The notes under the pieces are model-generated. The model was not told the origin of the DNA. It was given only the letters and a program-made list of their open reading frames with translations, and ran no database searches. The position numbers and the translations under genes were made by a program. Below are positions 25,767-39,827 of a stretch of DNA of 64,000 nt, one piece after another. Within the stretch, counting starts at the first letter, position 1, and every line of letters begins with the position of its first letter. The stretch comes from an uncultured Actinomycetes bacterium (GTDB lineage Bacteria; Actinomycetota; UBA4738; HRBIN12). The stretch lies in NCBI GenBank assembly GCA_964640965.1, contig CAZXJB010000001.1, forward strand, positions 6,150-70,149. The letters are read 5' to 3'.

Positions 25767-27365
25767 GTGTCGGAACGCAGGAAGGTGGGCTCGGTCACCT
25801 ACGAGGAGGTGGGCGAGGAGTACTTCGAGAAGCGCGGCCTGCGGCGACATGCGGCCTTCTGGTCGCTCTGGTCGCTCGGCGTCGCGGCCGTCATCTCGGG
25901 AGACTTCTACGGCTGGAACGTCGGGCTCGACGCCGGGGGGTTCGGCGGCCTCCTCGTCGCCACGGTGGTCGTGGCGATCATGTACTACGGCCTGTGCTTC
26001 AGCATCGCCGAGATGTCCCCGGCGCTGCCCCACACCGGCGGCGCGTACTCCTTCGCGCGCTCCGCGATGGGCCCCTGGGGCGGGTTCATCACCGGCCTCG
26101 CCGAGAACATGGAGTACGTGATCACGCCGGCCGTCGTGGTGTCGGCGATGGGCTTCCTCATGCACGACATCATGAAGGGCCTCCTCGACGTCGCCGGGGA
26201 GCCCGTGTGGAACAGCCCGGTGACGTGGATGGCGGTCTTCTACGTGATCTTCGTCGGGATCAACATCTCCGGCATCGAGGCCACGATGCGCTTCACGGTC
26301 GCCGTGAACATCGTGGCGCTCGGGATCCTCGGGGTCTTCTTCATCGCGGCCCTCGTCTCCGGGAAGCTCGACACCGCGAACTGGACGGACATCACGCCGC
26401 AGGCGGGCGGGTCGACGTTCTTCCCCAAGGGTCTCGGCGGGATCTTCCCCGCGATCCCGTTCGCGATCTGGTTCTTCCTCGCGATCGAGGAGCTGCCGCT
26501 CGCGGCCGAGGAGTCGATGGACCCCCGTCGCGACATCCCGAGGGCCACGATCTGGGGGATGACGACCCTCGTCATCACCGGCGCGCTGACGCTGTTCCTG
26601 AACACCGGCGTCGTGCCCGCCTCGCAGCTCGGCGTCTCGGCCACGCCGCTGTTCGACGGCTTCAAGGCCATCTTCGGCGAGGGGACCTCGGCCGAGCTGC
26701 TCGGCCTCATCGGGCTCTTCGGCCTCATCGCGAGCTTCTTCACGATCATCTACGCGTACGGCCGCAACACCTACTCGCTGTCCCGGGCGGGGTACTTCCC
26801 CAAGTGGCTGTCGCTCACGCACGGGACGCGGAAGACCCCCCACGTGGCGCTGATCGCGGGCGCCGTCGTGGGCTACGCGCTCGCGGTCCTGATGTACTGG
26901 CTGGGCCAGCAGGAGGGCGAGCTCGCCGGCAAGGTCGTCGGCGCGCTCCTGTACATGGCGGTCTTCGGCGCGGTCATCTCCTACGCGATGCAGTGCCTGT
27001 CGTTCATCCTGCTGCGCCAGAAGATGCCGCACATCCAGCGGCCGTACCGGAGCCCGGTCGGCGAGTGGGGCGCGGCGATCGCGGGGATCATCGCCATCGT
27101 GTCGCTGATCTCGCTGTACGGGAACGCCGACTACCGTCCCGGCGTGGTGGGAACGCTGATCTACTTCGTCCTCGGGATGCTGTACTTCGCCATCGCCGGG
27201 CGGCACCGGCTGGTGCTCTCGCCGGAGGAGGAGTTCGCCCTCACGAAGGGCGAGCGCGGGATCCCCGACGAGGCCGGGTTCGTCGCCTCTCGCGAGGAGC
27301 AGGAGGCGATCCTCCGCGGCGAGAGCGGGGGAGGCACGGGCGGTGGGCAGACGCCCTCCGACTGA
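25767..27365 (+). CDS. APC-superfamily permease, ethanolamine permease (Eat/EutP)-like
   Basis: The product has about 12 TM helices. A GGGAGGAGGTGG RBS precedes GTG 25767. The first 290 codons of track ORF 24897..27365 are antisense to the GntR gene and were rejected. Confidence 0.8.
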   Translation: MSERRKVGSVTYEEVGEEYFEKRGLRRHAAFWSLWSLGVAAVISGDFYGWNVGLDAGGFGGLLVATVVVAIMYYGLCFSIAEMSPALPHTGGAYSFARSAMGPWGGFITGLAENMEYVITPAVVVSAMGFLMHDIMKGLLDVAGEPVWNSPVTWMAVFYVIFVGINISGIEATMRFTVAVNIVALGILGVFFIAALVSGKLDTANWTDITPQAGGSTFFPKGLGGIFPAIPFAIWFFLAIEELPLAAEESMDPRRDIPRATIWGMTTLVITGALTLFLNTGVVPASQLGVSATPLFDGFKAIFGEGTSAELLGLIGLFGLIASFFTIIYAYGRNTYSLSRAGYFPKWLSLTHGTRKTPHVALIAGAVVGYALAVLMYWLGQQEGELAGKVVGALLYMAVFGAVISYAMQCLSFILLRQKMPHIQRPYRSPVGEWGAAIAGIIAIVSLISLYGNADYRPGVVGTLIYFVLGMLYFAIAGRHRLVLSPEEEFALTKGERGIPDEAGFVASREEQEAILRGESGGGTGGGQTPSD

Positions 27366-27453: not shown

Positions 27454-28836
27454 ATGCAGCGGCAGGGAACGTTGACGGCGAAGGAGCTCGAGGAGCTCGC
27501 CGACGCCGGTGAGGTCGACACCGTCCTGTGCATGTTCACCGACCTGCAGGGCCGGTTCATGGGCAAGCGCGTGATCCCGCACTTCTTCCTCGAGGAGATC
27601 CTCGGCGAGGAGGGCCTGCACGCGTGCCTGTACCTGCTCGCGATCGACATGGAGATGGAGCCGCTCCCCGGTTACCGGTACGCGAGCTGGGAGACCGGCT
27701 ACGGGGACTTCCGCATGGTCCCCGACCTGTCGACCCTGCGCTGGTGCCCGTGGCTCGAGAAGACCGTCATGGTGATCTGCGACATCGCCGACGAGGAGAC
27801 GCGGGAGCCGGTCGAGGTCGCGCCGCGCCAGATCCTGAAGCGGCAGATCGAGCGGGCCGCCCAGAAGGGCTACGTCTTCAAGACCGGGTCGGAGCTGGAG
27901 TTCTACCTCTTCAAGGACTCCTACGACGAGATCGCGGACTCCGGCTACCGGAACCTGCGGCCCACCTCCTCGTACATCATGGACTACCACATGCTCCAGA
28001 CGACGAAGGACGAGTGGGTCATCCGGCAGATCCGCAACGGCATGCTCGGTGCGGGGCTCCCCGTGGAGTTCAGCAAGGGCGAGTTCGGCAAGGGACAGCA
28101 CGAGATCAACATCACCTACGCGGACGCGCTCACGACGGCCGACTACCACGCCTTCTACAAGCACGGGGTCAAGGAGATCTGCGCGGCCAACGGCGTCGCC
28201 GCGACCTTCATGGCCAAGTGGTCGATGGCCGAGGCTGGGTCATCCTGCCACATGCACTCGAGCGTGTGGAACGCCGACGGCAGCGAGTCCCTGATGTGGG
28301 AGGAGTCGGCCCCGCACCACCTCTCGGAGACGGCGCGCTACTTCCTCGGCGGCCTCCTCGCGACCGCCCGTGAGATGGCCTGGATGTACGCGCCGTTCGT
28401 GAACTCCTACAAGCGGTACCAGCTGGGCTCGTGGGCGCCCACCGCGATCGTGTGGAGCCGCGACAACCGCACCTGCGGCTTCCGGGTGGTCGGGGAGCAC
28501 AAGGGCCTGCGGATCGAGAACCGGATCCCCGGCGCCGACGTGAACCCCTACCTCGGCTACGCGGCCACGATCGCGAGCGGTCTGTGGGGGATCGAGAACC
28601 GGGTGGAGGCGCCCGAGATGTTCGTCGGGAACGCCTACGAGGCCAAGGACGTCCCGCGCGTCCCGACCGCCCTCCACGAGGCGATCGAGACGTTCCGGGG
28701 AAGCCAGGTCGCCCGCGAGGCGTTCGGCGACTTCGTGTTCGAGCACCTGTTGAACACGGCGGAGCAGGAGCAGATCATCTTCGACAACACGGTCGTGACG
28801 GACTGGGAGCTCGCCCGCTACTTCGAGCGCGGCTGA
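27454..28836 (+). CDS. glutamine synthetase family protein (GS type I-like, gamma-glutamyl-ethanolamide/polyamine synthetase GlnA4/PuuA-like)
   Basis: The GS catalytic domain is recognisable ('ELEFYLF', 'KGEFGKGQHEINI', 'NSYKRY'). It sits immediately downstream of the ethanolamine-type permease. Confidence 0.9.
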   Translation: MQRQGTLTAKELEELADAGEVDTVLCMFTDLQGRFMGKRVIPHFFLEEILGEEGLHACLYLLAIDMEMEPLPGYRYASWETGYGDFRMVPDLSTLRWCPWLEKTVMVICDIADEETREPVEVAPRQILKRQIERAAQKGYVFKTGSELEFYLFKDSYDEIADSGYRNLRPTSSYIMDYHMLQTTKDEWVIRQIRNGMLGAGLPVEFSKGEFGKGQHEINITYADALTTADYHAFYKHGVKEICAANGVAATFMAKWSMAEAGSSCHMHSSVWNADGSESLMWEESAPHHLSETARYFLGGLLATAREMAWMYAPFVNSYKRYQLGSWAPTAIVWSRDNRTCGFRVVGEHKGLRIENRIPGADVNPYLGYAATIASGLWGIENRVEAPEMFVGNAYEAKDVPRVPTALHEAIETFRGSQVAREAFGDFVFEHLLNTAEQEQIIFDNTVVTDWELARYFERG

Positions 28837-28913: not shown

Positions 28914-29942
28914 ATGTCCGAGCTCAACGTGGTCGCCTACCGTCCTTCGCGCGCGGAGTACGCGTGGACGTTCGGGGGCGCCGCCCCGGTGAGGAAGGTG
29001 CGCCCCGGTGACGTCCTCGAGCTCTGGACGGACGACTGCTTCACGAGCCTCGTGCGCAGCGTCGACGATCTCGCCTCGAGCAAGATCGTGTTCCCGTTCC
29101 TGAACCCGCAGACCGGCCCCTTCTACGTCGAGGGCGCGGAGCCCGGCGACACCCTCGCCCTGCACTTCGTCTCGATCGAGCCGTCCCGTGACTGGGGGGT
29201 CTCGACGACGTTCCCGCTGTTCGGAGCGCTGACGTCCACCACCCGGACGGTCACGCTGCAGGACCCGCTCCCGGAGATCGTATGGATCTACCAGGTCGAC
29301 CGCGAGCGCCGCCTCGTGCGGTACGAGGCTCGAGCCGGCGACCACACCGTCGATCTCCCCCTCGACCCCATGCACGGCACGGTCGGGGTGGCGCCTCCGA
29401 ACCTCGAGGTGCGGTCCCCGCTGGTCCCGGACTCGCACGGCGGCAACATGGACACGCCCGAGATGCGCGTGGGGACGACCTGCTACCTCGGGGTGAACGT
29501 CGAGGGCGCGCTCTTCTCCATCGGGGACGGGCATTACCGGCAGGGCGAGGGCGAGACGTGTGGGGTCGCCGTCGAGGGCGCCATGGACACGACGCTCATC
29601 GTCGACCTCATCAAGGGCCGATCGACCCCGTGGCCCCGCCTGGAGGATGACCGGTACATCATGTCGGCCGGCTCGGCCCGGCCGCTCGAGGACGCGTTCC
29701 GCATCGCCCACGCGGATCTGATCGCATGGCTCGTGGAGGAGTTCGGTCTCGAGCGACTCGACGCCTACCAGCTCGTGACGCAGATCTCGGAGACGCCGAT
29801 CGCGAACGTGTGCGACCCCAACTACACCGTCGTCGCCAAGGCCCCGAAGCGGTACCTGCCGAGCGGCTCGGTCTACGACGGCGCCCACGGACGGCTGCGG
29901 GAGATGGCCGCCGGGTACCGGCGCGAGCGCGGCCTCGCCTGA
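28914..29942 (+). CDS. acetamidase/formamidase (FmdA_AmdA family)
   Basis: The protein begins 'MSELNVVAYRPSRAEYAWTF'. The fold matches FmdA_AmdA. A GGAGGAGG RBS is present. Confidence 0.85.
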   Translation: MSELNVVAYRPSRAEYAWTFGGAAPVRKVRPGDVLELWTDDCFTSLVRSVDDLASSKIVFPFLNPQTGPFYVEGAEPGDTLALHFVSIEPSRDWGVSTTFPLFGALTSTTRTVTLQDPLPEIVWIYQVDRERRLVRYEARAGDHTVDLPLDPMHGTVGVAPPNLEVRSPLVPDSHGGNMDTPEMRVGTTCYLGVNVEGALFSIGDGHYRQGEGETCGVAVEGAMDTTLIVDLIKGRSTPWPRLEDDRYIMSAGSARPLEDAFRIAHADLIAWLVEEFGLERLDAYQLVTQISETPIANVCDPNYTVVAKAPKRYLPSGSVYDGAHGRLREMAAGYRRERGLA

Positions 29943-29944
29943 GC

Positions 29945-30649
29945 ATGCGCCCGGTCGTCGGGATCCGGCATCACCTCCCCCACGAGCTCGGCGTGGTCGC
30001 CGAGGTGCTGGACGAGGAGCGCGTCCCCCACCGGTACCTGGACGCCTGGAGCGAGCCCGACTGGCCCGATCCCGACCACGTCTCCGGTCTGGTCGTGCTG
30101 GGCGGCGAGATGAACGCCGATGAGCTCACGACCTACCCGTTCCTCGCCCGGGAGCGGGCCTACCTGCGCGCGGCGGCCGACGCGGGCGTGCCGATCCTCG
30201 GCATCTGCCTCGGCGCCCAGGTGCTCGCCCGGGCCTTCGACGCGCCGGTCACCCCCTCGCCCGTGCCCGAGCTCGGGTTCCACCCGGTGACGACGACCCC
30301 CGCGGGATCGGCCGACCCGGTCCTCTCCCCCTTCGACGGGATCCCGGTGTTCCAGTGGCACGCCGACACGTTCGGCATCCCCACCGGCGCGGTCCACCTC
30401 GCTCGCGGGGACCGGGTCCCGAACCAGGCGTTCCGGGTCGGCCGCGCCTGCTACGCGGTGCAGTTCCATCCCGAGGCCACGCTCGAGGGGATCGCGGCGT
30501 GGGTCGACCGCTGGGAAGCGGATGTCCGGCGAACGGGTCGGGAGCCCGACGACCTGATCCGGGAGGCGGAGCACGCCTTGCCCGCGCAGCAGGAGGCCGG
30601 CCGGTCGGCGTTCCGAGCGTTCGCGGCCCTCGTGGCCGAGCGTGGCTAG
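29945..30649 (+). CDS. class I glutamine amidotransferase-like hydrolase (gamma-glutamyl-amine hydrolase PuuD-like)
   Basis: 'PILGICLGAQ' (nucleophile Cys) and 'VQFHPE' are present. The ATG lies 2 nt after the amidase stop. Confidence 0.8.
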   Translation: MRPVVGIRHHLPHELGVVAEVLDEERVPHRYLDAWSEPDWPDPDHVSGLVVLGGEMNADELTTYPFLARERAYLRAAADAGVPILGICLGAQVLARAFDAPVTPSPVPELGFHPVTTTPAGSADPVLSPFDGIPVFQWHADTFGIPTGAVHLARGDRVPNQAFRVGRACYAVQFHPEATLEGIAAWVDRWEADVRRTGREPDDLIREAEHALPAQQEAGRSAFRAFAALVAERG

Positions 30650-31488
30650 GCCTCGCCCTCCCAGGCGCCCGGCTCGCGGCCGAGCTCCCGATACCCCTCC
30701 CCGACCTCCTGGTACCACTTCCGAGCGGGACCGACCCTCGCGCGCAGCTTCCACCGGAGGCTCTTCGGCTTGGCCTCCACGAGTCGCCAGAGGTGGTCCA
30801 TCCGCTCCTCGACGAGCGCGCGCTGCCCGTCCGAGAGATCCGGGATCGTCTGCATGTATCGGCGGATCCGGTCGAGGTTCAGCGACACGGTGTAGTAGAA
30901 GCCCCACTCCCCCGAGAGCAGGTCCACGATCCGCGACGCGTCGAACGCCCCCGGGCTCTCGTGATCGGCGATCGGATGCTCGAGGAACAGGACGACCAGG
31001 TCCTTCAGGTCCTTCTCGTTGATCTCGACGATCTGGAGCTTCTCGAGCAGCAGGTCCGTGAGCGGGATCGTGACGGGGTCGAGGTCGAGCCTGCCGCGCA
31101 GGTCGATCGTGTGGCAGAAGTCGAGACGGTCGAGGAAGACGTCGACCCGGCGCCGCGCCCCCGAGGGATCGTGGAAGATGCGGCGGCCGACCCAGACGTC
31201 CATCGTGACCCCGCGCCCCCCGAGGACCTCGTACCCGAGCTCGGCGAACATCCGCTCGACCTGTCCGATCTCCCGGTCGTACCCCATGAAGTCGAGGTCG
31301 GTGAGGATCCGGTTCGTCTTCTCCAGCAGCCACACGTGCTGCGGGCACTGTCTGATGACCGCGAGCGCGCCCAGCAGCCGCAGGTGCACCCCGTGGGCGC
31401 GGGCGGCCTCGATGATCGTCTCGGCCTCCGCGACGAACTCCGGCCACGCCGAGAACGGCTCGCCGATCGGTCCGCTCGGCTCCTGCAT
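30646..31488 (-). CDS. hypothetical protein, possibly nucleotidyltransferase-fold
   Basis: The 280-aa product has a 'LLGALAV...ILTDLDF' segment loosely resembling the Pol-beta NTase G...DxD motif. Its start is 2 nt from the metallophosphoesterase stop. Confidence 0.5.
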   Translation of the reverse strand: MQEPSGPIGEPFSAWPEFVAEAETIIEAARAHGVHLRLLGALAVIRQCPQHVWLLEKTNRILTDLDFMGYDREIGQVERMFAELGYEVLGGRGVTMDVWVGRRIFHDPSGARRRVDVFLDRLDFCHTIDLRGRLDLDPVTIPLTDLLLEKLQIVEINEKDLKDLVVLFLEHPIADHESPGAFDASRIVDLLSGEWGFYYTVSLNLDRIRRYMQTIPDLSDGQRALVEERMDHLWRLVEAKPKSLRWKLRARVGPARKWYQEVGEGYRELGREPGAWEGEA

Positions 31489-31489
31489 C

Positions 31490-32452
31490 TCACCCCACCG
31501 TGAGGGCGTAGTTCTTCACACCCTTCTTCGGGTCCAGGATGACGAGCGACCCGCGGAGCACGCCCTCGTGGTACTCCGAGCCGGTGTTGATGCAGAGCGT
31601 CCGGCCGATCTTGATCCCGGCCGAGCACTCGTGGATGTGTCCGTGGAGCGACAGGAGCGGCTGCCACTTGCGGATGGCCTCGAGCACCGCCGTGCTGCCC
31701 ACCGGGATCATCTTCAGGCCACCCGCCTCCATCGTGGGCTTGAAGTCCTCGTCGAGCTCGGGCGCGAGATCGAGGTTGGAACCCCACGGCGGGGCATGCA
31801 CGTTGAAGATGCACCGGCTCATGTCGGGCACCTGGGCCGCGAGCTCGTCGATCTTCTGCGCGAGCACGTCCTCGGTCACGTCCCGTGGGCAGTTCCACGG
31901 GGTCACGTTCGCGTTCCCGACGGACAGGACGTAGTAGTCGTCGATCTCGATGACCCGTCCGTCGCCGTTCCGGATCGCGGTGCTCTTGTTGACGTAGTCG
32001 TCGATGAACTCGAGGTCGTCGTTGCCGGGCATCCAGATCGCGGGGGTCTTGCCGGGGTCCAGACGCTCGTCCGCGAGCCCGACCCACCCCTCCAGCACCT
32101 CCGCCATGTGCGTGCGGAACAGCTCCTCGACCTGCTCGGGCGTCTGGTACTGCGCTCGCTCCTCCGGCGTCATCCGTTGCGTGTAGTACCCCCGCTGACG
32201 CAGGGCCCGCTCGAGCTCCGCGAGCCCCCGGTCGTCGTCCACCCGCACCTCGGCGCCCTCGAACCGAGCCGTGTGGGAGCCATCGCGCTCCCGGACGATC
32301 GGCACGAGCATCTTCCCGGTCAGGTCCCCGCCCATGAGGAGGACGTCGGCACCGTAGTGCTGCGCGGCGTTCAGCCACTTGCGGAAGGTCGTCTCCGACC
32401 CGTGGACGTCCGTCGCGAAGAACAGCTTCAGCACCCGACACCTCCGTCCCAC
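31490..32452 (-). CDS. calcineurin-like metallophosphoesterase
   Basis: Metallophosphoesterase motifs 'FFATDVHGS', 'GGDLTGK', 'GNDD' and 'LHGHIHE' are present. Confidence 0.8.
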   Translation of the reverse strand: MGRRCRVLKLFFATDVHGSETTFRKWLNAAQHYGADVLLMGGDLTGKMLVPIVRERDGSHTARFEGAEVRVDDDRGLAELERALRQRGYYTQRMTPEERAQYQTPEQVEELFRTHMAEVLEGWVGLADERLDPGKTPAIWMPGNDDLEFIDDYVNKSTAIRNGDGRVIEIDDYYVLSVGNANVTPWNCPRDVTEDVLAQKIDELAAQVPDMSRCIFNVHAPPWGSNLDLAPELDEDFKPTMEAGGLKMIPVGSTAVLEAIRKWQPLLSLHGHIHECSAGIKIGRTLCINTGSEYHEGVLRGSLVILDPKKGVKNYALTVG

Positions 32453-32513
32453 GAGGGGGAGGGGGCTGCGCCGCCCTGCGTAACCCCCTCCACCCGTTCC
32501 ACCACCCCCGCCG

Positions 32514-34121
32514 TCACTCGGGGGGGACCTGCGAGAACTGCACCTTCAGCGGGATCCCCTTGCTCTGGTGGTAGAAGTGCGCGACCACGTAGATGATGAG
32601 CGGGATCACCAGCATCCCCAGGACCGTGATGTACTGGTTCGGCTCGGCGTCGCCCTTGAAGAACGGCTGCGCGACCGCCCACTCGGTGAAGATCGACACC
32701 GCGAGCGTGAGGAACCCCAGGATCGAGATCACGGGCACGCCTCCGATCCGCCGCTGGGTCGCCGGGGGGCCCGCCTCGAAGAGCTCGCGGCGCCGGTAGG
32801 GGTACACGATCCCCGCGATGCCCAAGACGATCCAGGCGACGAACCACGCCACGATCGAGTACAGGATCGCGGTCGAGTAGGCCGGGCTGTAGATGCCGAG
32901 CACCAGGAACACCTCCGCGGCGACGATCACCGCGACGATCGCCCACAGCGGCGCCCGGTACCGGGTCGCGATCTCCGAGAACCTGGTCGGGATGAGCCGG
33001 TCGAAGGACCAGGCGAACACGTTGCGGATCGGCGCGAAGCCGAGCCCCGCGAGGGAGACCCACGTCGCGACGATGAAGCACAGCCCGAAGAGCAGCTGCA
33101 GGATCGGGTTCCCCGTCATGAACGCCACGAGCAGCATCGGGACCGGCTCGCTCGAGGTGTGCTCGTGGACCAGGGCCGGCGGGAGCTTCGACGCATCGCT
33201 CGCCCAGATGGAGTCCAGCGAGTGCATGAAGTTCGTCCCGACGATCCCGTACACGAGCATGTAGAGGGCGAACCAGATCGCCATCTGCATCGCGAGGGAT
33301 CCGAAGAGCGCGAGCGCCTGGGACTTGGCCACCCCGCGGATCTCCCCCGCGAGGTTCGCCGAGAAGGTCTGCCCGAGCGTGTTCAGGTTGATGTACGTCA
33401 CCGCCGCGTACATCAGCGGCAGGAACGAGACCTTGAACAGCGCGCCCGCCTCCCTCCCCGCTTGGAGGACGGCGTCGTAGTCCGCGCCCGACAGGCGGTT
33501 GAAGTTGCCGCGGAACCCGTCCTGGCCGGTGACGATCAGGAGGAACCCGAGGATCGCCACGGCGAGCCACGCGAACGCGACGGCCCAGTAGGAGACCCGC
33601 ATCATCGCCTTGGCGCCCTTCAGGAACAGCCAGCCGGTCAGCACCAGGGCGGCGGTTCCGAGCAGGAACCGGACGATCGGCTGGTCGATGAAGTTCGCGA
33701 GGTCGATCCACCCCTGGCTCCCGCTGGAGATGCCGACCGCTCGGATCGCGTCGGCGAGGCCCCACCGGACCCACCAATCCTGGATCTGCCCCGTCCAGGA
33801 CAGCGCGGTGATGCTGATCGCGAAGGACGCGAACAGCCCCAGGCTCGGATGCAGCGTCCGGCTGATGTAGATGTACTCGCCGCCGGACCGCGGCATCGAG
33901 ACCGAGAAGTACCAGTACAACCCGGCGACCGGGAAGATCAGCAGGACGAACAGCACGCCGATCCCCATGTGCGCCCCGGGGAAGAACGCGGGCGCCCACA
34001 CGATGTACACGAGGGCGTACAGCAGCCCAGGGTTCATCGCGCAGTACATGAGGGCGTCACGGGCGCTGATCTGCCGCGTGAGGCCGGATGACTTGCGGAT
34101 GAACACGTCCTGCGTCGCCAT
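32514..34121 (-). CDS. APC-family amino acid/polyamine permease (PuuP-like)
   Basis: A 535-aa polytopic transporter. ATG 34121 has an AGAAGGGGGTGGA RBS. Confidence 0.85.
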   Translation of the reverse strand: MATQDVFIRKSSGLTRQISARDALMYCAMNPGLLYALVYIVWAPAFFPGAHMGIGVLFVLLIFPVAGLYWYFSVSMPRSGGEYIYISRTLHPSLGLFASFAISITALSWTGQIQDWWVRWGLADAIRAVGISSGSQGWIDLANFIDQPIVRFLLGTAALVLTGWLFLKGAKAMMRVSYWAVAFAWLAVAILGFLLIVTGQDGFRGNFNRLSGADYDAVLQAGREAGALFKVSFLPLMYAAVTYINLNTLGQTFSANLAGEIRGVAKSQALALFGSLAMQMAIWFALYMLVYGIVGTNFMHSLDSIWASDASKLPPALVHEHTSSEPVPMLLVAFMTGNPILQLLFGLCFIVATWVSLAGLGFAPIRNVFAWSFDRLIPTRFSEIATRYRAPLWAIVAVIVAAEVFLVLGIYSPAYSTAILYSIVAWFVAWIVLGIAGIVYPYRRRELFEAGPPATQRRIGGVPVISILGFLTLAVSIFTEWAVAQPFFKGDAEPNQYITVLGMLVIPLIIYVVAHFYHQSKGIPLKVQFSQVPPE

Positions 34122-34295
34122 CCATCCACCCCCTTCTCGCCCGGGCCCCCTCCCCGCGGGCGCGACGTCCCGGGCGTCGTCGGACCGCGCTAAGGGTAGG
34201 GCGGTCCCGTTCAACGGGCAAGACCGAGCCGCGCTCGGGCTGCCCACATCACGGAACGTGCCCTGTGCACGTTGAACACCCCGCCCGGCGAGGCG

Positions 34296-34571
34296 TCAGC
34301 CGGCCCCCTCGATCGCGAGGAGGAGCTGCACCAGGAGGATGGCGACCGCGTTCACCACGATCACGAGCGCGAGGTCGGGGTGCTCCACGGCGACCTCTCC
34401 TCTCGCGGCCGCGCGCAGCCGCGACCCAACGTGCACGAGCGCGACGAGGGCGAGCGCCGGCACCGCCACCTCGGGGCCGGCGAGCAGCACCCACCCGATG
34501 GCGAACAGGACGGCCAGCCACGCCGGCCGCCTGATCCGAGCCCGGTCCCGGCGCCTCATCCCGGGAGCCAT
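34296..34571 (-). CDS. small membrane protein (two predicted TM helices), 91 aa
   Basis: The product is hydrophobic ('WLAVLFAIGWVLLAGPEVAVPALALVALV...LVIVVNAVAILLVQLLLAI'). It lies between the GS-like gene and the permease. Confidence 0.3.
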   Translation of the reverse strand: MAPGMRRRDRARIRRPAWLAVLFAIGWVLLAGPEVAVPALALVALVHVGSRLRAAARGEVAVEHPDLALVIVVNAVAILLVQLLLAIEGAG

Positions 34572-34639
34572 GGTGCGCCCGCCGGGCACGAACGACCAGT
34601 CCGTCCGCACCGCGCAGGGAGGGCCGATCCGCCCTCGCG

Positions 34640-35968
34640 CTAGAAGAGCTCCAGGTACTCCCGCTGCTCCCAGTCGGTGATCCAGTCGTTGAACCGGGCG
34701 AGCTCGTAGCGCCGCATGACGAGGTAGGCCGTCACGAACTCCTCGCCGAAGAAGGCCCGGGTGGCCGGCTCCGCCTCGAACGCGTCGAGGGCCTCCTGGA
34801 TCGAGGTCGGGAGCTTCTCGAAGTCCTCGTCGTCCTCCGCGGGGATCCCCGGCTTGGAGGTCGGTCCCGGCTCGATCCGAGCCTCGATCCCCTGCAGACC
34901 GGCCTGCAGCAGCGCCGCGCCGATGAGGTAGGGGTTCGCGAGCGCCGAGGGGGCGCGGTACTCGAGGTGCCGCGACTGCAGCGAGCCCCCCTTCACACGC
35001 ACCAGCGCCGAGCGGTCCTCCAGTCCCCAGGAGACGTTCGTCGGGCTGAAGGTGTGGCGCCGGCGCCGTCGGTGGCAGTTCACGGTCGGAGCGATCACGG
35101 CGTCGATCGCCTTGGCGTACCGGAGCAGACCGCCGACGAAGTATCGGCAGGCCTCGGAGATCCCCAGCTCGTCCCCGTCGTCGCCGAACGCGTTCGTGCC
35201 GTCGTCCAGCCGCACGAGGGAGACGTGGGTGTGGTTCCCGCAGCCGGCCGAGCCGGCGAAGGGCTTCGACATGAAGGTCGCGAGCAACCCGTCCTGCCGC
35301 GCGATCTCCTTCACCCCGTTCCGGAAGGTGAACGCGTCGTCCGGACCCTTCAGCCCCCGGCTCGCCGCGCACGGGATCTCCCACTGCGAGCCCGCGTACT
35401 CGCAGTTCGCGGTGATGACCGACACCCCGATGCGCGGCATCTCCTCCAGGATGCGCCGGATCGTCGGCACGTAGTCGTTCCGGACGGTGTTGAAGATGTG
35501 GTACCCCTCGAACAGCGGCTCGTGCGTCTGCCCGTCGAGCAGGTAGAACTCGTACTCGGTCCCGATCACCGGCTCGAACCCCATCGCCCGACAGCGCTCG
35601 AGCGCCCGGCGGTACACGTGGCGCGGGGTCGCCTCCAGCGGGCTGCCGTCGTACCAGGTCGCATCGCAGATGAACCGACCGGTCGCCTCCACCCAGGGGA
35701 CCACCGCGGCGGTGTCGGGGTCGGGGTGCAGCAGCTGGTCCCCGTACATCCGCTCCTCGTTGTAGAGCGTGCCGGGGACCACGTCGGAGCGCGTGTCCAG
35801 GACGGAGGTCCCCCCGTACATGTTCAGCCCACGCTCGGCGTACCCGTCCGCGTGCTCGATCGGGACCGTCTTCGAGCGCGAGATGCCGTGCATGTCCGGG
35901 AGCTCGAACCGCACGAACCGGATCCCGTCGCTGCGCCACCGCTCGAGGATGGCTCCAACCTCGCTCAC
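34640..35968 (-). CDS. glutamine synthetase family protein (gamma-glutamylpolyamine synthetase GlnA2/GlnA3-like)
   Basis: The GS catalytic domain is recognisable ('GTEYEFYLL', 'NCHRRRR...'). An AGGAGGG RBS precedes GTG 35968 with a 5-nt spacer. Confidence 0.9.
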   Translation of the reverse strand: MSEVGAILERWRSDGIRFVRFELPDMHGISRSKTVPIEHADGYAERGLNMYGGTSVLDTRSDVVPGTLYNEERMYGDQLLHPDPDTAAVVPWVEATGRFICDATWYDGSPLEATPRHVYRRALERCRAMGFEPVIGTEYEFYLLDGQTHEPLFEGYHIFNTVRNDYVPTIRRILEEMPRIGVSVITANCEYAGSQWEIPCAASRGLKGPDDAFTFRNGVKEIARQDGLLATFMSKPFAGSAGCGNHTHVSLVRLDDGTNAFGDDGDELGISEACRYFVGGLLRYAKAIDAVIAPTVNCHRRRRRHTFSPTNVSWGLEDRSALVRVKGGSLQSRHLEYRAPSALANPYLIGAALLQAGLQGIEARIEPGPTSKPGIPAEDDEDFEKLPTSIQEALDAFEAEPATRAFFGEEFVTAYLVMRRYELARFNDWITDWEQREYLELF

Positions 35969-36012
35969 CTCATCCCTCCTTGTGCGTCGCCTCGCTTCGC
36001 CCCCGAGCTCAC

Positions 36013-36408
36013 CTACTCCGAGGCCACGGCGCTCACCCACCGCAGCAGGTCCCGCTCCGTGACGATCCCGACGAGTCGGGTCCCGTCGAGGACCGCCAGC
36101 CGGCGGACCCCCTTCGCGTTCATCAGGTCGAACGCCTGCTGGATGTCCGTGTCCGGGCGCACGGCGTGCACGGGCGCCGACATCACCTCTCGGATCGGTC
36201 GCCCAAGCAGGTCCGGATCGCCGAGGATCCGCCGGGTCAGGTCCCGCTCGGTGAAGATGCCGACCGCGTGATCGCCCTCGGTCACGAGGACGGATCCGAT
36301 GTCGTGCTCGACCATCGCTCGGACGGCGCTCGAGACCGGATCATCGGGCGCGACGCCGACCACGTTCACCGTCATGATCTCCCCGACCGCATCGGGCGCC
36401 TTCGTCAT
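36013..36408 (-). CDS. CBS-pair domain protein
   Basis: Two CBS motifs are present. A GGAGGGG RBS is present. Confidence 0.8.
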   Translation of the reverse strand: MTKAPDAVGEIMTVNVVGVAPDDPVSSAVRAMVEHDIGSVLVTEGDHAVGIFTERDLTRRILGDPDLLGRPIREVMSAPVHAVRPDTDIQQAFDLMNAKGVRRLAVLDGTRLVGIVTERDLLRWVSAVASE

Positions 36409-36474
36409 GTCCCCTCCGCTCCTCCTCCCTCGACGGCCGCGTCCCCTGTGCGACGCCTCGCCGGTCCGACCGCC

Positions 36475-38421
36475 TCACCGCCGGGAGCCCGTTCGGGACG
36501 CTCGGCGTCCGGCACCTCGCTCCCCGCGCGGTCCCGCGGGCGCCGTGAGCTCGCGGAGGCGGATGATCCGCAGGGCCATCATGAGGTCGAACCACCGAGC
36601 GGTCTCCGTCACGTCGAGCTCGGCCACCTGTCGGATCTTCTGGAACCGGAGCCGCAGGGTGTTCCGGTGCACGAAGAGGCGCTCGGCCGCGAGCTTCGCG
36701 TTCCCCATGCACTCCAGGTACACCTCGACGGTGCGGAACAGGTGGGTCCCCTTGGCCCGATCGTGCTCCACGAGGCGGTGCAGCCGCTCCTGGTAGACGT
36801 CCCGGACCTGCTGCTGCGCCACGTGGAAGAGGTGCCACTGGGCGCCGAGCTCGTCGAAGGTCACCGCCGCCCCCGGACCGCGGGTCGCGCGACCGATCAG
36901 CAGCGCGTTCCTCGCCTCCTCGAAGGCGTCCGGGTAGTCGTCCACGGCGCGGCAGAGCCGCGAGACCCCCACCGACACGAGCACGTCCTGACGTCGCTCG
37001 TGCGGCCGCTTCAGCTCGCACAGCCGCTCGGCGAGGCGATCCAGGCTCGTCGCCGGGGCCACGCGCAGGAGCGCCGTCAGCGTGTGGTCCCGATGCGTCG
37101 CGAGCGACCCCGGGAACCCACCCATGAGGTCCTGCCGGAGGGCCGACCACAGCCGATCGACGTCCGCCCCGCCGGTGCCCGCGGCGATCTCGAAGGCCGC
37201 GACCACGTGCGGCTGCCCGAGGTCCACCCCGAGCCGCAGCGCGCGACCCTCGAGGAGCTGCGCGTCGTCCTCACCGCGCGCGAGCGCCTCGAAGAGGTCG
37301 CGCACGACGTTGCGCTCCGTGAGGGTCTCGATGAGCCTCGCGTTCTGGACGGCGAGCGCCGCCTGGGACGCCAGGGTCAGCAGGAGCTCGCCGTCCTCCC
37401 GGTGCGGCGTGCCGGCCGATCTCGAGAGGCACGCGAGCACGCCGATCACGCGCTCCGACACGCGCATCGGCGCCACGAGCGCCGAGCGGGCCTGCGGCGC
37501 GATCAGGTCGAAGGCCCGGAAGGCCTCCGCGTGCTCGCGCCGCGACAGGGCGAGCGCCGAGGTCGCGCCGAGGAGCCGCGCCCACACCCCGTCCGCCGGA
37601 AGCGTCGGCGGCGGCCCGCCCATCGAGCCCGGCACGGCCTCCCAGAAGGCCTCGACCCCCAGGTGCCCGCCGGCCTCATCGAGCGCGAGGATGGCGGACC
37701 GGTCCGCCGCCACGAGCATCGCCGCCGTGCCGGCCAGCCGGTGCAGCACATGCCGCAGGGAGGAGGTCTGCACGACCGCCTGGCCGGCCTCCGCGAGCGT
37801 GTTCAGGACCTGCACCTGCCGGGCCTGCCGCTCGTACAGCTGCGCGTTCTCGACCGCCGTCGCGATGAGCACCGAGAGGGTGTTCATGAGGATGAGGTCG
37901 TCGTCGTCGAAGCGGTGGGGCGCCTCGGTGTGCATCGTGATGACGCCGATGAGCCGCCCGTTCGCGGAGATCACCGGGATCGTGAGGTAGGACTGGTACC
38001 GATCGTCGTTCAGCTCCGGGAAGCGCTTGAACCGAGGATCCTGGGTGGGGTTCTCCGTGATCATCCCCGGCTGGCGCGTGAGCGCGGTCCAGCCCGTGAG
38101 CCCCTCACCGAGGGCGAGCCCGAACCGACCGATCCACCGCTCGTAGCCCTCCACCCCCGCGCGGACGATGAGCCGCTCGCTCTCCTCGTCCCAGAGGTAC
38201 ACGAGGGCCCCGTGGCACCCGGTGAGCTCCTTGCAGAGGTGGACGACGTAGTCGAGCAGCTTGGCGACGTCGAGCGTCGAGGCCAGGCTCGCGAGGATCC
38301 CGAAGAGCGCCTCGGTCTCGCGCCGCTTGTCCCGGAGCATCTGACGCAGGGCCCGGGCGGCCTCCGCCGGCGGGGTCGCGAGGCCCCGTCGGGCGCTGCG
38401 GTGGGCCGCGGATCTCGTCAT
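36475..38421 (-). CDS. GAF-GAF-PucR(CdaR)-type transcriptional regulator
   Basis: Two GAF domains are followed by a C-terminal PucR HTH ('LFVHRNTLRLRFQKIRQV'). ATG 38421 has a GGAGG RBS. The upstream 174 codons of the track ORF were rejected. Confidence 0.8.
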   Translation of the reverse strand: MTRSAAHRSARRGLATPPAEAARALRQMLRDKRRETEALFGILASLASTLDVAKLLDYVVHLCKELTGCHGALVYLWDEESERLIVRAGVEGYERWIGRFGLALGEGLTGWTALTRQPGMITENPTQDPRFKRFPELNDDRYQSYLTIPVISANGRLIGVITMHTEAPHRFDDDDLILMNTLSVLIATAVENAQLYERQARQVQVLNTLAEAGQAVVQTSSLRHVLHRLAGTAAMLVAADRSAILALDEAGGHLGVEAFWEAVPGSMGGPPPTLPADGVWARLLGATSALALSRREHAEAFRAFDLIAPQARSALVAPMRVSERVIGVLACLSRSAGTPHREDGELLLTLASQAALAVQNARLIETLTERNVVRDLFEALARGEDDAQLLEGRALRLGVDLGQPHVVAAFEIAAGTGGADVDRLWSALRQDLMGGFPGSLATHRDHTLTALLRVAPATSLDRLAERLCELKRPHERRQDVLVSVGVSRLCRAVDDYPDAFEEARNALLIGRATRGPGAAVTFDELGAQWHLFHVAQQQVRDVYQERLHRLVEHDRAKGTHLFRTVEVYLECMGNAKLAAERLFVHRNTLRLRFQKIRQVAELDVTETARWFDLMMALRIIRLRELTAPAGPRGERGAGRRASRTGSRR

Positions 38422-38531
38422 CGCCGACCTCCGGGAGACGCCGAACGCTACCACCCGCCGCGCCCGATGGGAAGACGTGCGGAACAGTGCATCCCGCACA
38501 CGCGCCGACCCGGGCGCTCGACCGGGGGTCG

Positions 38532-39827
38532 CTACACCGCCCGGATGTAGCGCTCGCGCTCCCAGTCCGTCACGGTCTCCTGCCACGCCTTCAGCTCCCA
38601 CTCGCGCGAGGTGACGAAGTACCGGCTGAACGCCTCCCCGAGGGCCCCTCGCAGCCCGGCGTCCTCGCGGAACGCCCCGATCGCGGCCTCGAGGGAGCCG
38701 GGAAGCAGCGGGAGATCGGTCCTCGCGTAGGCATCCCCCGACTCGGCCGGAGGGGGGATGAGCCCCCGGCGCACGCCGTCGGCCGCCGAGGCGGCGATCG
38801 CCGCCAGGGCGAGGTACGGGTTGGCGTCGGCCCCGGGCCGGCGGCACTCGAAGCGCCACAGCTCGGGTCGGGCCGAGCGGATCGCGCGCACCGCGCAGGA
38901 CCGGTTCTCGTAGCCCCAGGTGGCGTTGATCGGCGCGAACCACCCCGGGACGAGCCGCTTGTACGAGTTGATCGTGGGGTTCAGCAGGAGCGATGCCGCC
39001 GGGAGGTGCTCGAGCAGCCCGGCGACGGCCGAGCCGAAGACCTCCGGGAGGGGCTCGCCGGGGTCGGCCCCCGCGAAGGCGTTCACGTCCCCCCGCCAGA
39101 AGGACATGTGGACGTGGCCGCTCGAGCCCTCCTCCCCGGGGACCGTCTTCGCGAGGAAGCTCGCTCGGAAGCCCATCGAGGCGGCCACCTGCTTCACGGC
39201 GAACTTCACGAGGGCCGCGTCGTCCGCCGCCCGGAGGCCGCGCCCGGGGGCCAGGTTCAGCTCGAGCAGCCCCGGACCGGCCTCCGTGTGCACGGCGGAG
39301 AGCCCCACCCCCAAGCCCTCGAGGGCGCGCACCAGCTCGTCGAGGAACCGGGCGTAGCCCCCGATCTCGTTGATGCTGTAGCTGATCCCCGTGGAGGTCG
39401 GCTGGCCCCGCTCGTCGAAGATGCGGATCTCGTACTCGATCGCCGCCATGACCTCGTAGCCGAGCTCCCCGACGTCGGCGAGGACCCGCCGATAGACCTC
39501 ACGGGTCGCGTACGCGCACGGGGAGCCGTCGGGCCAGCTCGGCGTGACCAGGCACAGCCGCCAGCCCGGGCGCCAGGTGAGCTCCCGCACGGAGTCCGGC
39601 TCGGGGTGGACGACCAGGTCCGGCGCCCCGACCCGGATCCCGAAGCGCTCGTAGTCCGAGATCGGGGTGTCGACGGGGTCGAGCCCGAGGAGCAGATCGG
39701 TCATGACCGTCCCGCGCTCCACCGCGGTCTCGAAGGCCGCGGGCCGCAGCGCCTTGCCGCGCAGCGACCCGTTCACGTCGGGCATCGCGAGCAGGATGAA
39801 CTCCTCGTGGGCGTCCGCGCCGCTCAT
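38532..39827 (-). CDS. glutamine synthetase family protein (gamma-glutamylpolyamine synthetase-like)
   Basis: The GS domain is recognisable ('EYEIRIF', 'SGHVHMSFW', 'NSYKRL'). ATG 39827 overlaps the upstream stop (ATGA). Confidence 0.9.
   Translation of the reverse strand: MSGADAHEEFILLAMPDVNGSLRGKALRPAAFETAVERGTVMTDLLLGLDPVDTPISDYERFGIRVGAPDLVVHPEPDSVRELTWRPGWRLCLVTPSWPDGSPCAYATREVYRRVLADVGELGYEVMAAIEYEIRIFDERGQPTSTGISYSINEIGGYARFLDELVRALEGLGVGLSAVHTEAGPGLLELNLAPGRGLRAADDAALVKFAVKQVAASMGFRASFLAKTVPGEEGSSGHVHMSFWRGDVNAFAGADPGEPLPEVFGSAVAGLLEHLPAASLLLNPTINSYKRLVPGWFAPINATWGYENRSCAVRAIRSARPELWRFECRRPGADANPYLALAAIAASAADGVRRGLIPPPAESGDAYARTDLPLLPGSLEAAIGAFREDAGLRGALGEAFSRYFVTSREWELKAWQETVTDWERERYIRAV

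Follow-up and report, generated by a model that had tools for sequence, protein, structure and literature searches.

The stretch of DNA analysed here, referred to as the window, comprises 64,000 nucleotides (nt) of contig CAZXJB010000001.1 from an uncultured Actinomycetes bacterium (GenBank assembly GCA_964640965.1), and coordinates given without a locus number or record accession are positions within it. Its G+C content is 68-76%, and its closest relatives are metagenome-assembled genomes (MAGs) of Actinomycetota. On the minus strand, three co-directional genes follow one another in the order permease, metallophosphoesterase (MPE), and a 280-amino-acid (aa) open reading frame (ORF) encoding a nucleotidyltransferase (NTase)-like protein, with gaps of 79 nt and then 1 nt between them:

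34121-32514, minus strand: divergent APC-superfamily permease, first gene of the cassette described below, 535 aa; the ATG at 34121 agrees with 535-aa homologues
32441-32445, minus strand: GGAGG ribosome-binding site, read from the sequence, 6 nt before the GTG start of the MPE gene
31490-32434, minus strand: MPE, 314 aa, similar to COG2129, aq_1956, and TT1561, with a cap insertion of ~90 residues
30646-31488, minus strand: NTase-fold protein, 280 aa, ATG at 31488, related to DUF1814 and NTP_transf_5

A first-pass annotation, made from the letters alone, had described the MPE and 280-aa genes as a minus-strand pair separated by 1 nt, and this layout is borne out apart from the MPE start. The mechanical ORF list places that start at 32452, but GTG at 32434 is the likelier choice, given the ribosome-binding site and a length and N-terminus like those of homologues: translation from it gives a protein beginning MLKLFFATDVHGS, and homologues measure 313-315 aa, one of them being 100% identical. 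At the junction of the two genes, again read from the sequence (GTG GGG TGA g ATG CAG), the MPE stop codon ends at 31490 and a single base precedes the next ATG.

A conserved cassette of permease, metallophosphoesterase, and nucleotidyltransferase

We examined the association of these genes from both sides. An NTase-centred scan of genomes, taking one genome per species and a 12-sequence alignment of the family, confirmed 552 loci, and the best 80 of these were retained; neighbours were counted by tblastn and ORF clustering, and a locus was considered well-flanked if it had 3.5 kb or more on each side (51 of the 80). An MPE homologue was present in 69 of the 80 loci and a permease in 63, rising to 48/51 and 45/51, respectively, among the well-flanked ones. 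The reciprocal analysis used 80 MPE-centred metagenome loci, and the 21 with at least 2.8 kb on both sides carried the permease in 20 cases and the NTase in 17; every further MPE-centred contig that we looked up also has an unannotated NTase homologue. The adjacency of MPE and NTase is far beyond chance. Co-conservation elsewhere, which the first-pass annotation had named as a check on its pair, is thus upheld in both directions (MPE in 48 of 51 loci, NTase in 17 of 21), and the pair in the window makes up the last two genes of a conserved cassette of three.

Close relatives (~70-94% identity) retain the same permease-MPE-NTase order, the convergent FmdA/AmdA amidase, and GS-like (glutamine synthetase-like) genes nearby. 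The best 80 loci come from Actinomycetota, Chloroflexota, Alphaproteobacteria (Hyphomicrobium, Methyloceanibacter, and Dongiaceae), Methylomirabilota, and Bacillota on the bacterial side, and from Bathyarchaeia, Nitrososphaerales, Thor-, Odin-, and Hermodarchaeota, and Thermococci on the archaeal side; the trio itself is recorded in Actinomycetota, Chloroflexota, Alphaproteobacteria, Bathyarchaeia, Asgard archaea, and haloarchaea. Gene order is shuffled across this range—GS-like, MPE, permease, NTase in 20 loci, mostly of Alphaproteobacteria; NTase, MPE, permease in 13; and permease, MPE, NTase with convergent and divergent variants. Over 49 loci, the pairwise distances of the three proteins are strongly correlated with one another (r = 0.95-0.97, Mantel p <= 0.001, with the species tree not corrected for). 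The trio has also been duplicated as a whole, with two complete paralogous copies on single contigs, their components 41-54% identical. On one such contig (L173, 8110-11726 and 15632-20187), the copies, which differ to that same degree, have different neighbours, CN_hydrolase and M20 beside one and AAT and S58 beside the other; a second contig (L178; 217-975, 5014-5760, 7315-9957, and 11909-14530) likewise holds two complete trios.

Two cultured organisms carry the cassette in whole or in part. The haloarchaeon Halobellus limi CGMCC 1.10331 has the full trio on a plasmid (NZ_CP031312.1, record 382277-389795; L174), as genes DV707_RS16305, RS18515, and RS16315. On the megaplasmid of Thermomicrobium roseum DSM 5159 (NC_011961.1, record 780240-784642; L175), permease and MPE genes are followed by a gene for a 602-aa protein, and no NTase of this family lies beside them. 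We considered that the 602-aa protein might be an NTase fusion, but this was ruled out, as it is a tandem CN_hydrolase. The MPE-permease pair is the tightest core of the cassette. A literature search returned no work on the function of these families, and no description of an APC permease-MPE-NTase cassette was found in the searchable literature; what is new here is the conserved association, not described before, of new families from the NTase, MPE, and APC superfamilies.

Family assignment of the three proteins

The 280-aa protein is nearly invisible to domain libraries. Pfam NTP_transf_5 (PF14907) matched at 12.9 bits (E = 0.08), below its gathering score of 31.2; PF08843 (AbiEii) gave no match at E <= 0.1; an NCBIfam search returned nothing meaningful; and searches of PDB sequences, with the single sequence or a profile, yielded chance matches only. 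A word-indexed search found 3961 homologous proteins at E <= 1e-3, up to 94% identical, and an exhaustive search matched 1910 representatives of clusters formed at 50% identity, 1276 of them at E <= 1e-10. All of the close homologues listed lack a Pfam domain, every one that its source had named is called 'hypothetical', and homologues on contigs were flagged 'PF14907 (weak)'. One apparent fusion among them (P0278, 396 aa) was set aside, being a truncated IclR-like helix-turn-helix segment joined to the NTase and probably a gene-call artefact. When 54 diverse members (31-75% identical to the query) were scanned against Pfam, 29 matched PF14907 (best E = 5.3e-7), whereas only a few matched other NTase families (AbiEii, DUF6036, and MdcG), PF08843 being reached by 3 of the 54 (best E = 5.7e-4). 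PF14907 is thus the only Pfam family with recurrent matches among these relatives, and it is itself a family of uncharacterised nucleotidyltransferases, as the sole paper found for the accession also describes it.

Alignment of the same 54 members revealed 12 invariant columns (D64, D66, H126, K150, D163, W195, T200, N204, R249, G253, W258, and Y259) and 18 more that are at least 90% conserved, including R37, G40, A43, R60, D116, K159, and D160. The protein has the Pol-beta motif hG[GS]...[DE]h[DE]h, as L39-G40-A41 and an invariant D64-L-D66-F67, together with a third carboxylate, D116, in a predicted strand at 115-119. The weak 'G...DLD' segment on which the first-pass annotation had based its assignment corresponds to G40...D64-L-D66, both of whose aspartates are invariant across the relatives; the fold and catalytic aspartates that it had left for checking are likewise recovered, the minimal alpha/beta NTase core being recognisable by structure comparison. 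The closest structural relatives include ANT(2'') and LnuA, which are small-molecule O-nucleotidyltransferases, and FKRP is also among the fold matches. Similarity to ANT(2'')-Ia and LnuA is distant (12-17% identity, with TM-scores of 0.35-0.39 over the query), and these antibiotic-resistance enzymes of ~160-180 aa differ in having neither the C-terminal domain nor a linked permease or MPE.

By its motifs, the protein is closer to DUF1814 (PF08843), the group of AbiEii and MenT1/3/4. That group is defined by hG[GS] (motif I), an Arg before DhD (II), a Lys in a hydrophobic helix (III), and +DxxD (IV) (PMC3985639). The window NTase has all four, invariant or nearly so, as G40, R60-x3-D64-L-D66, K150 (in LLEKLQIV), and K159-D160-L-K-D163, with D116 between the second and third; an Ala at the second position of motif I, here A41, has also been reported among DUF1814 homologues. 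It departs from DUF1814 in the spacer between motifs I and II (23 residues rather than ~15), in an extra aromatic-rich helical domain of ~120 residues, and in its partners, which are an MPE and an APC permease in a chromosomal metabolic setting instead of an AbiEi or MenA antitoxin. Nine of the 12 invariant residues fall in this C-terminal domain (DWGFYYT..NL; PKS..WK.RA..G...WY; W246 and W258-Y259), which points to a constant acceptor or partner across the family. Judged by these motifs, the 280-aa protein is an NTase with its catalytic residues intact, and its family, so far undescribed, has kinship with DUF1814 and NTP_transf_5; we do not assign it to either, since it stays below the thresholds of both profile models.

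The MPE falls just short of its Pfam model (Metallophos, PF00149; 19.8 bits against a gathering score of 21.5), and several of its more than 7800 homologues, which are up to 100% identical, carry precomputed PF00149, PF12850, or PF14582 assignments. All seven metal ligands (D9, H11, D37, N138, H213, H266, and H268) are invariant among 33 sequences reaching down to 47% identity, in the motifs D9-x-H11, G36-D37, G137-N138-D139-D140, H213, G265-H266, and H268, and the four-layer beta-sandwich of the fold was recovered. A single-sequence search of the PDB gave chance matches only, whereas a family profile found LpxH as the best match (E = 8e-5). The protein is a genuine calcineurin-like MPE and falls in COG2129, an uncharacterised group; it is nearest to aq_1956 and TT1561 (Pfam Metallophos_3, deposited as hypothetical proteins), with MPPED2 also among the closest MPEs. 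From these it is set apart by the cap insertion, which, along with the substrate loops, contains many non-ligand residues invariant in the 33 sequences, and by motif III, which reads GNDD, an invariant Asp replacing the non-ligand His. LpxH, a UDP-2,3-diacylglucosamine pyrophosphatase (GNRD), and YfcE (GNCD) similarly lack the motif-III His, and MPEs of this type cleave nucleotide-linked pyrophosphate or phosphodiester bonds; YfcE hydrolyses diesters, not monoesters (PMC4320098).

The permease matches AA_permease_2 (50.6 bits, cut-off 27) and AA_permease (40.1 bits, cut-off 24.6) in Pfam. It reaches no NCBIfam family, its relatives giving only weak TIGR00909 matches, and no match was found among PDB sequences. 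It evolves faster than its partners (mean identity of 34%, compared with 46% for NTase and MPE), and two stretches are conserved, a cytoplasmic N-terminal tail (F-x-R-K-[AS]-S-G-L-x-R) and an extreme C-terminal tail (KG[IV]D...[FY]xE[IV]PPE); the T. roseum permease keeps both, despite having no adjacent NTase. The N-terminal RKASGL was considered as a modification site and set aside, as it presumably corresponds to a motif that is common ahead of the first transmembrane segment in APC transporters.

Metabolic surroundings and proposed function of the cassette

Around the trio, the window contains several genes that we regard as context rather than core, and a further module beyond them:

34640-36040, minus strand: GS-like gene of gamma-glutamyl-amine-ligase type, upstream of the cassette; Pfam Gln-synt_C, 292 bits
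29942-30649, plus strand: class-I glutamine amidotransferase-like hydrolase, whose 3' end overlaps that of the NTase gene by 4 nt
28914-29942, plus strand: FmdA/AmdA-family amidase, convergent with the NTase gene
27454-28836: GS-like ligase, forming a neighbouring module with the permease below and the amidase and hydrolase above
25767-27365, plus strand: second permease

The first-pass annotation had placed the pair between two polyamine modules, as an interruption with no evident role there. The second permease passes the ethanolamine permease model TIGR00908 (384.8 bits, cut-off 381.75), both GS-like genes in the window lie below every NCBIfam equivalog cut-off, and GS-like enzymes of Streptomyces gamma-glutamylate either ethanolamine (GlnA4) or polyamines (GlnA2) (PMC6529630, PMC8998196). 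The neighbouring module may, then, handle ethanolamine rather than polyamines, and on these grounds 'amine/ethanolamine modules' is the safer label for the flanks. Nor does the notion of an interruption hold, as the pair forms a trio with the adjacent permease and has nitrogen-catabolic surroundings throughout.

Elsewhere, the neighbours of the trio vary by lineage, and all are genes of organic-nitrogen catabolism (amine, amide, amino-alcohol, or ureide) or of its regulation. A GS-like gene adjoins the trio in 24 of the 80 loci, and the alphaproteobacterial version passes the equivalog cut-off for 'type III glutamate-ammonia ligase'. An FmdA homologue directly follows the NTase gene in L001-L006, L008, and L009, with none in L007. 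Neighbours in Actinomycetota and Chloroflexota include kinases of the choline/ethanolamine kinase family (13 of 80 loci), DMGDH/sarcosine-dehydrogenase-like FAD+GcvT enzymes (11 loci), CBS proteins, and DeoR, TetR, or GntR regulators. Bathyarchaeia and Nitrososphaerales MAGs, and unassigned metagenome contigs of which some are archaeal, instead have a PuuE-like deacetylase-family hydrolase, CN_hydrolase, M20, S58, and AAT hydrolases, and Aminotran_3. The H. limi trio adjoins an IclR regulator, an iron-containing alcohol dehydrogenase, and an aldehyde dehydrogenase, the best NCBIfam matches of the latter two being GbsB-type choline dehydrogenase and betaine-aldehyde dehydrogenase, both below cut-off.

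Some individual loci are worth recording. In five loci, of which four or more are from Chloroflexota (for instance L043 5772-6587, L068 6798-7607, and L074 6751-7560), the gene immediately following that of the NTase encodes a CBS-only protein, hinting that CBS proteins are a recurrent nucleotide-sensing partner. On one actinobacterial contig (L004 1523-8151), the trio lies beside a microcompartment locus with BMC shell proteins, EutN, an APH-family kinase, Aminotran_3, Aldedh, and SDR, which resembles the RMM-type amino-alcohol microcompartment. Loci of Streptosporangiaceae type (L167 249-10421 and L177 3331-13866) encode GntR, a permease of the trio type, a PfkB+SIS fusion, NTase, MPE, a LOG-like protein, an amidohydrolase, an Asp/Glu-type racemase, and allantoicase, combining an frl-like half (GntR/APC/PfkB/SIS) with a ureide-like half.

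We consider it very probable that the pair works with the permease in the uptake or catabolism of nitrogen compounds, and we infer that its enzymes, in association with transport, form and cleave a nucleotide-linked phosphodiester or pyrophosphate bond. As to the specific chemistry, nucleotidylylation of the cargo followed by hydrolysis is the possibility that we rank first, tentatively and with well short of even confidence. The permease would import a cationic or zwitterionic nitrogen compound, most plausibly an amino alcohol or its phospho(di)ester; the NTase would use a nucleoside triphosphate to modify the cargo or its head group at a hydroxyl or phosphate, attaching a nucleotidyl (or nucleotide-linked phosphoryl) group, a step modelled on ANT(2'') and LnuA acting on small molecules; the MPE would then hydrolyse the nucleotide-linked phosphodiester or pyrophosphate bond of the adduct; and the released product would feed lineage-specific enzymes, which in the window would be the GS-like ligases, the FmdA-type amidase, and the amidotransferase-like hydrolase. 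Amino alcohols are the theme that recurs most, and the aromatic and acidic residues of the NTase C-terminal domain would suit a cationic head group. Several observations weigh against this chemistry. Nucleotidylylation followed by hydrolysis looks energetically wasteful for a catabolic route, and the T. roseum arrangement indicates that the NTase is dispensable. Judged by motif, the nearest relatives of the NTase are MenT and AbiEii, which act on tRNA and not on small molecules. The neighbours differ widely, yet residues of the NTase C-terminal domain and of the MPE cap and loops are invariant, a combination that one constant target fits better than varied cargoes. Finally, a phosphodiester cargo finds no support in the neighbourhoods, none of which contains glycerol-phosphate or Pho-regulon genes; a glycerophosphodiester cargo (GPC/GPE), which we had considered, remains a guess for the same reason.

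The invariance of the enzymes amid changing neighbours is better accommodated by the main rival to cargo nucleotidylylation, a reversible covalent switch in which the NTase would write, and the MPE erase, a mark (nucleotidyl or phosphoryl) on one of the proteins of the transport complex, be it the permease, the MPE, or the NTase, toggling uptake of nitrogen compounds. The pairing of an NTase with a phosphohydrolase follows the logic of known writer/eraser systems such as GlnD, GlnE, and SpoT, and GlnD-GlnK-AmtB and GlnE-GS offer a functional analogy, in that an NTase-fold writer and a phosphohydrolase eraser control proteins of nitrogen uptake and assimilation. Relatives sharing the DUF1814 motifs act on macromolecules and autophosphorylate, the fast-evolving permease retains strongly conserved cytoplasmic tails, and paralogues of the trio co-diverge one-to-one. 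On the other hand, the trio lacks a PII protein as well as ACT and HD domains, its eraser would be an MPE, and neither enzyme has a sensor domain; the C-terminal tail of the permease has no invariant Ser, Thr, or Tyr, its aromatic position varying among F, Y, H, and W; and in T. roseum the tails persist although no NTase lies beside the permease. It would be unusual for every transporter paralogue to have its own writer/eraser pair, and enzyme-type regulators are rare in the operon of the transporter they control. We regard a switch as possible but rather doubtful. Less probable still, in our estimation, is anabolic activation, whereby the NTase and nearby kinases would convert the imported compound into an amino alcohol or sugar activated with NDP or NMP, with the MPE as a pathway phosphatase or proofreading hydrolase, by analogy with Lic/Kennedy synthesis of CDP-choline and CDP-ethanolamine or with the isomerase-kinase-phosphatase-NTase logic of ADP-heptose. 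The choline/ethanolamine kinase family genes noted above speak for it, as do FKRP, a CDP-alcohol phosphotransferase, among the fold matches and the Streptosporangiaceae-type loci, where the PfkB+SIS fusion directly precedes NTase and MPE and all four activity types of a nucleotide-sugar pathway are present.

The first-pass annotation had suggested a small signalling, nucleotide-turnover, or defence module. The pairing of an NTase with a phosphoesterase stands, but the more specific forms fare poorly. A second-messenger pair, in which the NTase would make a signalling nucleotide, the MPE would degrade it, and the permease would be the regulated target, strikes us as improbable. A MenT/AbiEii-like toxin with an MPE antidote, or another defence module, is very improbable and was rejected after PADLOC found nothing for the NTase and a scan of viral contigs returned no homologues. 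Nor does the trio agree with known anti-phage systems, the CBASS-type CD-NTase ones included, in protein models, a linked effector, or location in defence islands or phages. No COG5340/MenA-type antitoxin gene occurs at the loci, where the neighbours are instead MPE and APC permease in nearly all cases, and the high conservation (~70-94% within a clade, ~40% between domains), stable synteny in metabolic operons, and obligatory permease partner form a pattern unlike that of mobile, patchily distributed toxin-antitoxin or defence genes.

Cargo nucleotidylylation and the switch also have a broader form: the trio might be a new transporter-coupled nucleotidyl-transfer system of Bacteria and Archaea, an idea that we find attractive but would not bet on. 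It could operate by group-translocation-like trapping, in which the permease would be the site where imported cargo is nucleotidylylated and a dedicated phosphodiesterase would then resolve it, or as a self-contained write/erase nucleotidylylation switch that would be docked on the cytoplasmic tails of the permease and would gate organic-nitrogen uptake. If true, this would assign functions to three large uncharacterised protein families, give DUF1814-type NTases a non-toxin, housekeeping role, and constitute a new kind of system. The cassette is found in thousands of genomes and metagenome contigs, mostly of uncultured bacteria and archaea from soils, peat, sediments, and brines, and its carriers—Thermoleophilia and other Actinomycetota, Chloroflexota, Hyphomicrobiales, Methylomirabilota, Bathyarchaeia, and Asgard archaea—are hard to culture and central to carbon and nitrogen turnover. 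As all three proteins are now 'hypothetical' or generically named, solving their roles would annotate three large families and clarify organic-nitrogen scavenging, and it may reveal new nucleotide-dependent small-molecule chemistry or transporter regulation. The cultured carriers, H. limi with the full trio and T. roseum with permease and MPE only, make the cassette testable.

Other features of the window

A scan of 30000-35000 for promoters and terminators gave none above shuffled expectation, and an Rfam scan of 30000-36500 in E-value mode, examined for a riboswitch upstream of the permease, gave only a chance snoRNA-like match (E = 0.4). Three further ORFs lie upstream of the cassette:

34296-34571, minus strand: small hydrophobic ORF, 91 aa, of uncertain membership in the cassette
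36013-36408, minus strand: CBS-pair protein gene, overlapping the start (36040) of the mechanically called GS-like ORF by 28 nt
36475-38943, minus strand: long ORF upstream of the amine genes

The 91-aa ORF lies within the 518 nt that separate the GS-like gene from the permease gene and has no Pfam domain; an 89-aa called gene in the same position on a related 1.4-Mb Actinomycetota contig (L001 7863-8132) is 49% identical to it, and it may be a small membrane subunit of the module. On the same syntenic contig, the counterpart of the long ORF is a 633-aa PucR-like regulator (GAF-GAF-GGDEF_2-HTH_30), and the ORF in the window is probably the local transcription factor.

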